64,000 nucleotides of DNA from Saccostrea echinata (lineage: Eukaryota). The notes beneath the pieces are model-generated. The model worked only from the letters and a program-made list of their open reading frames with translations. It ran no database searches and was not told where the DNA came from. Both the position numbers and the translations under genes were made by a program. Location of the stretch: contig NW_026889757.1 in NCBI RefSeq assembly GCF_033153115.1, positions 8,742,001-8,806,000 on the forward strand, written 5' to 3'. Below are positions 15,778-18,700 of the stretch, one piece after another. The stretch's first letter is position 1. Every line of letters starts with the position of its first letter.

Positions 15778-18700
15778 ATGCGAAATGAAAACAGAAATAT
15801 CAAGAACGAAATGGTAAGAACATTCCAAGAATTTTTTGGTACTTTACACTCAAAACGTATCTTATTTTTGTTAAGTTTTCAAGACAGATCATGAACTGCT
15901 CATTATATTTCAAATGATTGAGAATGTGTTTATGAGTAATGAACGTAACGGTTGTGTCAATCTACCCATGTCTCAACGTATTGCCAGAGGGATGTTAATC
16001 ACCCTACAAATGTTACTTAAATTTTAACTTCCTCCTTATCTATTTATGGTTATTTTATTATTTTTATCTGGACATATGGTACATTATGTTTATCAGGATA
16101 TTCAAGCCTAGAATGTGTACCGTATTGTAATATGATACGTACTTAATGTATACTTAATGATATGTGATGCTTGCAGTAGTGTATATTCTCAGAGGTTCAT
16201 GAGTCGTTACACTAATTTGATTGTGTCTGTTTTGTAAATGAATTTGAAATACTGTTTCAATATGTAAATCAAACGTTAGTTATAAATATTTTTTCTTTCA
16301 GTTGAACAGATCATTTAGAAAAATAATGCCTTCATTGATTGTTGACACCTCGTTCAAAGTATCGATACCCACCACCATTTTGAAAAACAGGTCCTAGGGT
16401 TGTGACCTCAGCAGAAATTTCATTATAAAGGCCAAAAATTCCCATTTGGATATGTGACTTCTGTTGACATAATGTAAACAATGCGAACAGTAGCTCCAGT
16501 ACACTTGAGATACAATGTAGGTTGTAAGAAAAAAATATTTTAGACTCACTTTTCAAAAGTATGCGGTAATAGCGAATTCATGCTAAGTGAGGTGATATTT
16601 TGTTTCAGACCATATATTTTTTACCTGTTTTGATCTTATCATCGTTAGCAGTTGTCAAATATGACAATAGCAATCCAAATAAATTTTTTCTTACGATGTT
16701 TGGTGCAGCAGGGGACACAATCTTGCAAAATACTAGAGGAAAATAAAAGGGGCATGACTCTAGGACCGTAACAAATTTAGGGCCTCTGACGATATACAGA
16801 TAGATGAAGCAACTTAATTTTTAATATCTCCGCTCTTATTTTTAAGGAAATGAGTGAAGAGTCTCAGGTTCCAAATGGAAAACGAAAATCTACTGAAAAT
16901 GGTTCAAAGTATGGAAGAATGGATTTAGCAGACTTTGTAACAGAAGTTGAAACATTTTCTCGTCTTGTGGAACCAATTGCATTTGTTGTGTACTGCATTG
17001 AAGACATAAGAAAGTAGGTTTCTAGAGGTTTTACTCCTCATATTTTTAGGTCACCTGAGTTTACTCAGGTGACCTATTGCTATCTGTTTTCGTCCGTCGG
17101 CGTGCGTCGTCCGTCGTGCGTTAACATTTGAACATTTTCAGCTTCTTCTCTGGAACAAATGAACCAATTTCAACCAAATTTGGCACATAGCATCTAGATG
17201 TGAAGGGGAGTAAAAATTGTGAAATTCATGACCCCTACCCCCCTGGGGCCTGAGGGGTGGGGCTAAAACCATCAGAATTAATGCAATCTTTAAAAATCTT
17301 CTTCTTTACTCCTGGGCATCAAGCAGGCAAACTGTTGGCATGAATGTAATAAGCATTGAGCCCTCTACCTAAATTGTGAAATTTATGGCCCCAGGATCAG
17401 GGGTTCTGGTGCTAGGGTGGGGCTCTGTTGAATATGTAGTGAAAAGCATTATTCTTAAAAAATCTTCTCCTCTGCTCTTTAGTATTTAGAAAACAAACAA
17501 TATGCATAGTTATGACGAGGAAAGGTGTTTCTTTTATAATTGTGAATTTCATGGCCCCTGGGTCAGGGGTTCTGGTGTTAGGGCGGGTATCTAATGATTA
17601 TATAGTGAAAATGCATTAATTATTCAAAAATCTTCTCCTCTGCTCCTGGGTATTAAGCCGATGAACTAAGTACATAGTTATAATGAGAAAGAGTGCCTCT
17701 TCCAAAATTGTGAATTTCATGGCCCAGGGGTCAGGGGTTCTGGTGTTAGGGTGGGGCTCTGTTGAATATATAGTGATAATGCATTATTTCTTTAAAAAGC
17801 TTCTTCTGTGCTCTTGGATATTATGAAAACAAAATAAATACATAGTTATGATGATGAAAGGTGCCTCTTCCAAAATTGTGAATTTCATGGCCCCAGGGTC
17901 AGAGGTTCTGGTGTTAGGGCAGCGTTCTGTTGAATATACATGTATAGTGAAAATGCATTATTTCTTTTAAAAATCTTCTCTGATCCAGGGCAAACAAACT
18001 GAAGGCATAGTTATGATGAATAAGGGTGCCTATTCCTATCTTGTGAATTTCATGGCCCCCTGGTCAGGGGTTCTGGTTTTAGGGCGGGGCTCTAATGATT
18101 ACATAGTAAAAATGCAATAATTCTTTGACAATCTTCTCCTTTTCTCCTGGGTAATAATCCGATGAACTACGAGTATAGTTATGATATGTAAGGGTGCCTG
18201 TTCCAAAATTGTGAAATTCATGGCCCCTGGGTCAGGGGTTCTGGTGTTAGGGTGGGGCTCTGTTGAATATATAGTGATAATGCATTATTTCTTTAAAAAT
18301 CTTTTTCTTTGATCCTGGGTATTTAACAAACAAACTGATGCATAGTTATGATGAGTAAAGGTGCCTCTTCCAAAATTATGAATTTCATGGCCCCTGGATC
18401 AGGGGTTCTTGTGTTAGGGTGGGGCTCTAATGATTACATAGTAAAAATGCAATAATTCTTTGAAAATCTTCTTCTTTTCTCCTGGGTATTAAGCTGATGA
18501 ACTAAGAGTATTGTTATGATATGTAAGGATGCCTCTTCCAAAATTGTGAATTTTATGCCCCATGCATCATGGTTCTGGTGTTAGGGCAGAGCTCTAATGA
18601 TTACATAGTGAAAATGCATTAATTCTTTGATAATCCTCTGCTCTCTTTCTGGGTATTAAGTAAGCTTACTAAATGTAAAATTATGATGAGCAAGTGTGCC

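Follow-up and report, generated by a model that had tools for sequence, protein, structure and literature searches.

The palindrome TACATGTA of Saccostrea echinata as a probable excision footprint of TA-targeting DNA transposons

Here, we report that the palindrome TACATGTA in the genome of Saccostrea echinata mostly originated as a 6-bp insertion at a TA dinucleotide and is very probably the footprint of excised pogo/Tc1-type elements with CAG..CTG ends. We read the word as a scar because the copies of one satellite repeat show the same site empty, filled by an element or scarred. The analysis concerns a window of 64,000 nucleotides (positions 8,742,001 to 8,806,000 of contig NW_026889757.1, assembly GCF_033153115.1) together with samples and pattern counts from the whole genome. 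An earlier sequence-only reading of the window had proposed that TA-CA-TG-TA is a common excision scar; this proposal is supported by the three states of the paralogous satellite site, by the dominance of CATGTA among gains at TA, and by words that match the ends of elements.

Abundance and location of the word

The window holds 32 copies of TACATGTA, compared with 1.9 to 4.1 expected under Markov models of order 0 to 3 and 6.7 under order 4. The sequence-only reading had counted about 30 copies by eye and held that composition predicts only a few; the exact count bears out both statements, and the coordinates that it gave were correct in 16/16 cases. Among the palindromic 8-mers of the window, TACATGTA ranks first (runner-up, 19 copies), and its one-letter variants are scarce, e.g., TACATGTG with 3, CACATGTA with 1, and TACATGTC with 2 copies. 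Genome-scale counting against a Markov background, proposed earlier as a check, gave the same picture: in 140 stretches of 10 kb (1.4 Mb), a non-random draw at round coordinates, TACATGTA occurs 527 times, i.e., ~1 per 2,700 letters, vs. about 60 expected (56 to 62 with the motif masked). Extrapolation to the genome of 923 Mb gives ~347,000 sites, ~300,000 of them over background. Among the 16 words of the form TA-XY-Y'X'-TA, counted in the first 1 Mb of this sample, TACATGTA was enriched 7.6x, TATATATA 7.0x, TACCGGTA 3.9x, TAGGCCTA 3.3x, TACTAGTA 3.0x, and TAGTACTA 2.8x; the remaining palindromes reached at most 1.5x, and TAGATCTA was enriched only 1.3x despite the GAG- and GAT-ended elements in the genome. 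The excess of the exact word in the 1.4-Mb sample is 465 and that of all its one-mismatch neighbors together about 225, which suggests decay of roughly 6% per base, a rough figure that depends on the background model.

The sequence-only reading also described all copies as noncoding, and the checks agree with this. Only the copy at 52696 falls in an open frame of at least 100 codons, and spliced contigs skip it as an intron; the sites from 35449 to 43151 are intronic, lie in a 3' UTR or fall beyond any exon visible in the spliced contigs. Outside 34000-45300 and 48600-63000, the coding check consisted of open frames of at least 100 codons only. When contigs of four runs, spliced and with thin cover, were compared with these two intervals, no 6-bp loss at window scars was found among the matches listed, and a second haplotype of 35300-44700 was not found in the assembly. 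A CATGTA gain in contigs at 45207-45211 was set aside as most likely derived from a different repeat copy. Two convergent spliced genes (34003-38115, plus strand; 39163-44933, minus strand) are outlined by contigs of runs listed as DNA, and we take the first to resemble a VIP36-like L-type lectin. In a long 3' UTR, one contig of run X3 lacks 50 bp (36656-36705), probably a deletion allele because the ends of the gap are not GT..AG. An array of 31- and 35-bp units (19608-20210; 18.7 copies) lies directly behind a reading-frame-like stretch.

Table 1. Features of the window (positions counted from its first letter) and genomic loci with a transposase match between inverted repeats
Feature	Position or loci	Strand	Basis
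TACATGTA, all 32 sites	3400, 3482, 4344, 10525, 12197, 12629, 15588, 17937, 21190, 21710, 23617, 23744, 27647, 35449, 35798, 36561, 36570, 37638, 37669, 38411, 38842, 38873, 39954, 41565, 43151, 49318, 51036, 52696, 57304, 58521, 60525, 60535		
TATATA site of 166-bp satellite (6828-7396), empty in window; basis of the three-state test	6975..6980	+	
TA-GG..CC-TA element, predicted TAGGCCTA donor	11872..12584	+	filled vs. homolog L056
TACATGTA in degenerate satellite unit	12629..12636	.	homolog lengths
Host element of the 17937 scar, with 168-bp internal array	17042..18808	+	genome copies
TACATGTA, 6-bp gain at TA in one 168-bp monomer	17937..17944	.	sister-monomer comparison
175-bp TA-CAG..CTG-TA miniature element, likely scar donor family	20249..20423	+	TIRs, TA on both sides
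TA-CAG..CTG-TA miniature element	29910..30094	+	related to inserts in L293, L297
TACCGGTA, 6-bp gain at TA (CC..GG-type scar)	32613..32620	.	2/2 homologs 6 bp shorter
TA-CCG..CGG-TA miniature element family, predicted TACCGGTA donor	45051..45277	+	30 copies aligned
TA-CAGG element, left end only	63426..63700	+	similarity to L255
DDE_1 between TA-flanked TIRs, CAG ends	L242, L247, L258, L256, L261, L262		
DDE_1 between TA-flanked TIRs, CCG ends	L268, L269		
DDE_1 between TA-flanked TIRs, GGG ends	L284, L285		

Three states of a satellite site and insertion at TA

Several comparisons bear on the origin of the word. First, the sequence-only reading had proposed to look for sites that occur as TA, as TA-element-TA and as the motif, and such states are found among paralogous copies of the 166-bp satellite, not as alleles of one locus. 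By exact pattern counts genome-wide, which give no ratio since the patterns for filled and scarred sites differ, the TATATA site is empty in 14,040 copies, carries TACATGTA in 39 (spread over all three TAs; one event is represented by two tandem copies), and shows the left flank of the satellite followed by TA-CAGTNRAAC in 12 (control, 0). Four of these 12 (L293, L294, L295, and L301) are verified as whole insertions, with the right TIR followed by TA and resumption of the satellite; in L297 and L299 the right TIR is present and the right flank is ambiguous, and for the other six no right end lay within the ~600 bases fetched. The insert in L294 is 84% identical to the window element at 20249-20423. 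Genome-wide, 228 variants of the site are longer by 3 to 10 bp. The first 100 of these, classified by eye, include 22 TACATGTA, 1 TACCGGTA, 1 TACTAGTA, 3 TACAGTA, 2 TACTGTA, 1 TACAGGTA, and 1 TACAGTGTA; the class longer by 4 bp has 15 members, 12 with plain (TA)n and 3 with TATGTA.

Second, an all-against-all alignment of 1.77 Mb provided homologs for 90 of 689 TACATGTA sites. Once the 29 copies of the 17937 event were removed, along with 14 sites at which homologs share the word, 47 informative sites remained. Homologs are 6 bp shorter at 22 of them and 11 or 12 bp shorter at 2, differ by substitution at 8, and have other lengths at 15, whereas eight control palindromes, some of them non-independent, gave 1/98 at −6. 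Origin by substitution or slippage had been named as the outcome that would speak against CATGTA insertion; the 6-bp gains form the largest class, and this part of the claim stands, with substitution and other lengths accounting for 8/47 and 15/47. In the homolog comparisons, the word sits at a TA target that has been duplicated. For 5 of the 22 six-bp cases, counted by eye, the displayed homologs have CA, TT or AA in place of TA, which requires a prior point mutation. For the related words, homologs are 6 bp shorter at 3/3 informative sites of TACCGGTA, 1/5 of TAGGCCTA, and 0/9 of TACTAGTA.

Third, the tabulation of 6-bp indels, also proposed earlier, shows CATGTA to be dominant at TA: in an unbiased indel table, TACATGTA makes up 8/17 polarized and 20/35 unpolarized TA-bounded 6-bp gains, and the single-end forms TACATA/TATGTA make up 0/12 of the 4-bp TA..TA gains. 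The flanks of the scars are biased as well, with A at position −3 in 503/989 scar-flank readings vs. 35% of all TA (p=6e-23) and purine favored at −1. In intact elements of one aligned CAG family, A has a frequency of 0.72 at −3 and 0.79 at −1, and G at −1 reaches 0.26 in scars vs. 0.09 in this family.

Two window copies had been singled out as 6-bp insertions. The monomer at 17937 exceeds all sister monomers (8/8) by 6 bp, as claimed. Its host, which is presumably Helitron-like, is young, high-copy and noncoding, with 29 other closest genome copies that are 93 to 99% identical; because all 29 carry the word at this position, the scar represents a single event spread by the host. A search for a filled version of the site gave 0 matches. 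The copy at 12629 exceeds 4/5 homologs by 6 bp (the fifth differs by −7), in agreement with the length claimed for it, but the alignment gives no clean case of CATGTA at TA.

A second class of micro-insertions in the genome sample converts XY to XY+reverse complement+XY (AATTAA, 8; CATGCA, 5; GCATGCA, 3; AGCTAG, 2), with 3-bp versions in ATGCATATG, AACGTTAAC, TCATGATCA, and GAATTCGAA. These insertions resemble footprints left after hairpin opening by elements with 2- to 3-bp target duplications.

Candidate donor elements, proposed excision, and alternative origins

A PF03184 (DDE_1) profile search gave 150 scored matches from 256 candidates. Among the 50 DDE_1 loci examined are TA-flanked TIR elements with CAG, CCG, GGG, and GAG ends; identity within families is 91 to 98%, and the longest frames are 520 aa (CAG), 592 aa (GGG), and 755 aa (GAG). 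With a PF03184 transposase between TA-flanked TIRs, the donors are probably pogo-type DNA transposons, and Tc1 (PF13358) and mariner families, which lie outside the PF03184 search, may be further contributors. The TA-CAG..CTG-TA elements that the sequence-only reading had recognized in the window are confirmed at 20249 and 29910; at 63426 only a left end is present, and no right end was found in the window. The ends of 20249-20423 match DDE_1-bearing loci (L245, L259, and L250), and the left end at 63426 aligns with 90% identity over 279 columns to one in L255, likewise DDE_1-bearing. Of the 30 aligned copies of the 45051-45277 family, L140 alone has gained CATGTA, at a TA in its interior. The inner bases of scars correspond to element ends for CA..TG and CC..GG, weakly for GG..CC (1/5), and GA..TC is not enriched.

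Other loci from these searches are recorded here in their own right. The 2.75-kb TA-CAG element L207 was rejected, as it has no frame of transposase length. L271-L275 and L276-L279 carry multi-copy DDE_1 frames of 576 and 584 aa, with no clear shared TA-flanked TIR within 3.5 kb. L282 and L283 carry a 559-aa DDE_1 frame between pieces of the 166-bp satellite, with flanks identical at both loci. TIR elements with TTAA sites and AGG-type ends, which we assume to be Kolobok-like, lie inside repeats (L204:3265-3691, L212:8777-9709).

We suggest a mechanism in which CAG..CTG elements enter at TA and duplicate it, a step seen in the sequence. Transposase would then cut 2 nt inside each end, leaving two noncomplementary CA-3' overhangs, as established for Tc1. 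Germline end joining of these untrimmed ends, with one overhang copied over the gap, would yield TA-CA-TG-TA, and elements with CC and GG ends would likewise yield TACCGGTA and TAGGCCTA. By analogy to C. elegans, the likeliest repair route would be polymerase theta-type joining; in a check for templated inserts, 3/12 short spacers fit, and chance predicts about 3. The scars would last in noncoding DNA, multiply as their host repeats do, and pile up where a site is used again, as the observed pattern suggests. None of the 130 element ends examined lay inside a scar. At L037, near 3146, three units (CATG, CCGG, and CATG) are stacked between TAs and involve two element types; together with the excess of the doubled word TACATGTACATGTA, this mixed stack favors reuse of sites.

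The weakest point of the footprint reading is that scars exceed recognizable elements perhaps tenfold or more, and this surplus needs either repeated jumping by each element or extensive loss of elements. CAG-type ends found by pattern number at most 34 in 1.4 Mb, a weak count because the backwards control is nearly equal (26), and a de novo TIR scan for counting element ends was discarded as too noisy.

Selection offers a different account, in which TACATGTA is a transcription-factor site gained or kept mostly via point substitutions. PsMyb37 of Phytophthora binds TACATGTA (PMC11134190), the word is cited as a preferred Irx site (PMC3520976), and a neighbor excess below that of the exact word (225 < 465) could mean upkeep; however, this deficit also fits young scars that decay by ~6% per base. 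Moreover, selection at single sites predicts neither TACCGGTA insertions nor filled sites, and the majority of informative sites are length gains in repeats and satellites. We consider this origin highly improbable. A slightly smaller chance still is given to slippage or template switching that builds the palindrome from local sequence in TA/CA-rich DNA. Some of the window copies do lie within TA/CA-rich tracts, and TACATGTACATGTA occurs 16 times in 1.4 Mb; however, no CATG template is present in earlier states like GATCGC-TA-AAATT and CCCT-TA-TTC, doubles amount to 16/527 for TACATGTA vs. 21/11,642 for the remaining TA-NNNN-TA words, and the mixed stack at L037 is impossible by slippage, which also leaves the satellite gains, the filled sites, and the CCGG class unexplained.

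In a third account, aborted integration, a transposase or other TA-specific nuclease would cut at a TA that never received an element, and repair would add an invariant CATG. This would account for the surplus of scars over visible elements and for the shared target bias, but is just as improbable as slippage. The inner letters of the scars follow the element ends (CA, CC, and GG), and TACAGTA, TACTGTA, and TACAGTGTA extend further into CAG ends. Untemplated addition of CATG is also not known for any enzyme. A 2-LTR-circle junction (CA-TG) was rejected by reasoning, as it would not lie between two TAs. Altogether, excision of TA-targeting elements is the origin that we favor.

Known footprints and what the scars may record

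The scar itself is known from Tc1; what is unusual here is how uniformly it takes the +6 form and how often it occurs. Tc1 excision leaves noncomplementary 2-nt 3' overhangs, and the C. elegans Tc1 footprint shares with the S. echinata scar the identical 8-mer, the TA duplication, the CA..TG ends, and the logic of 2-nt overhangs (PMC4490562). In the worm, TA-CA-TG-TA is one among 26 different germline products in a screen for frame restoration only (PMC4490562). Revertants with TACA+TG+TA numbered 24/103 in wild type, 10/36 in lig-4, and 3/39 in polq-1 (PMC4490562, supplementary data 3), and total Tc1 reversion was >20-fold lower in polq-1 (PMC4490562). Within this screen, which is limited to frame-restoring products, the worm TA-CA-TG-TA product thus appears to be LIG4-independent and largely POLQ-dependent. 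Elsewhere, Tc1/mariner footprints are described as the terminal 2 to 4 nt (PMC6943129), the Tc1 TA-CA-TG-TA footprint is termed rare (PMC3520976), and the typical somatic Tc1 scar is given as +4, at 78% (PMC13148408, citing Eide and Anderson 1988). By contrast, +6 dominates here, with 39 copies vs. 3 single-end +4 forms at the satellite site, and none of the twelve 4-bp TA..TA gains was a single-end form. A +4 scar of Tc1 would read TACATA/TATGTA.

The Sleeping Beauty footprints TACAGTA/TACTGTA likewise place end-derived bases between two TAs but are 7 bp long and stem from 3-nt overhangs (PMC6943129), whereas the leading form in S. echinata retains both ends and is 8 bp long (22/100 rows), with the Sleeping Beauty forms a minority (by eye, 3 TACAGTA and 2 TACTGTA among the first 100 rows out of 228). 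Passer, of the pogo superfamily, resembles the donors in its pogo-type transposase and TA target and leaves footprints of 0 to 4 bp; it differs in that these come from HeLa plasmid assays, and its text describes no genome-scale accumulation (PMC9976928). In Phytophthora, the same word, motif-1 or AM-20 TACATGTA, is highly abundant in noncoding DNA and is interpreted as a Myb-bound promoter element (PMC3520976, PMC11134190). A footprint origin was rejected there for abundance and conservation (PMC3520976), whereas in S. echinata abundance accompanies insertion at TA; high numbers by themselves do not speak against footprints as the source. Among the matches listed in a search of full-text literature, a body that mostly excludes subscription papers, figures, and preprint supplements, none describes genome-scale or dominant TACATGTA scars in an animal.

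Past cut-and-paste events are usually hard to recognize (PMC4423477). The ~300,000 datable, family-coded scars constitute a direct record of such events and of germline repair. A +6 scar leaves the reading frame intact, and a protein would thereby gain Tyr-Met, His-Val or Thr-Cys. In such genomes, TACATGTA will lead motif searches and may be misread as a binding site under selection. A broader joint reading, which we hold to be unlikely though worth stating, is that the stereotyped scar is the top nonrepetitive 8-mer here and in other marine invertebrate genomes, that scars attract insertions, that some have been co-opted as transcription-factor sites, and that the Myb-bound TACATGTA of Phytophthora has the same origin. 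If true, transposons would spread a cis-element by departing, not by remaining.
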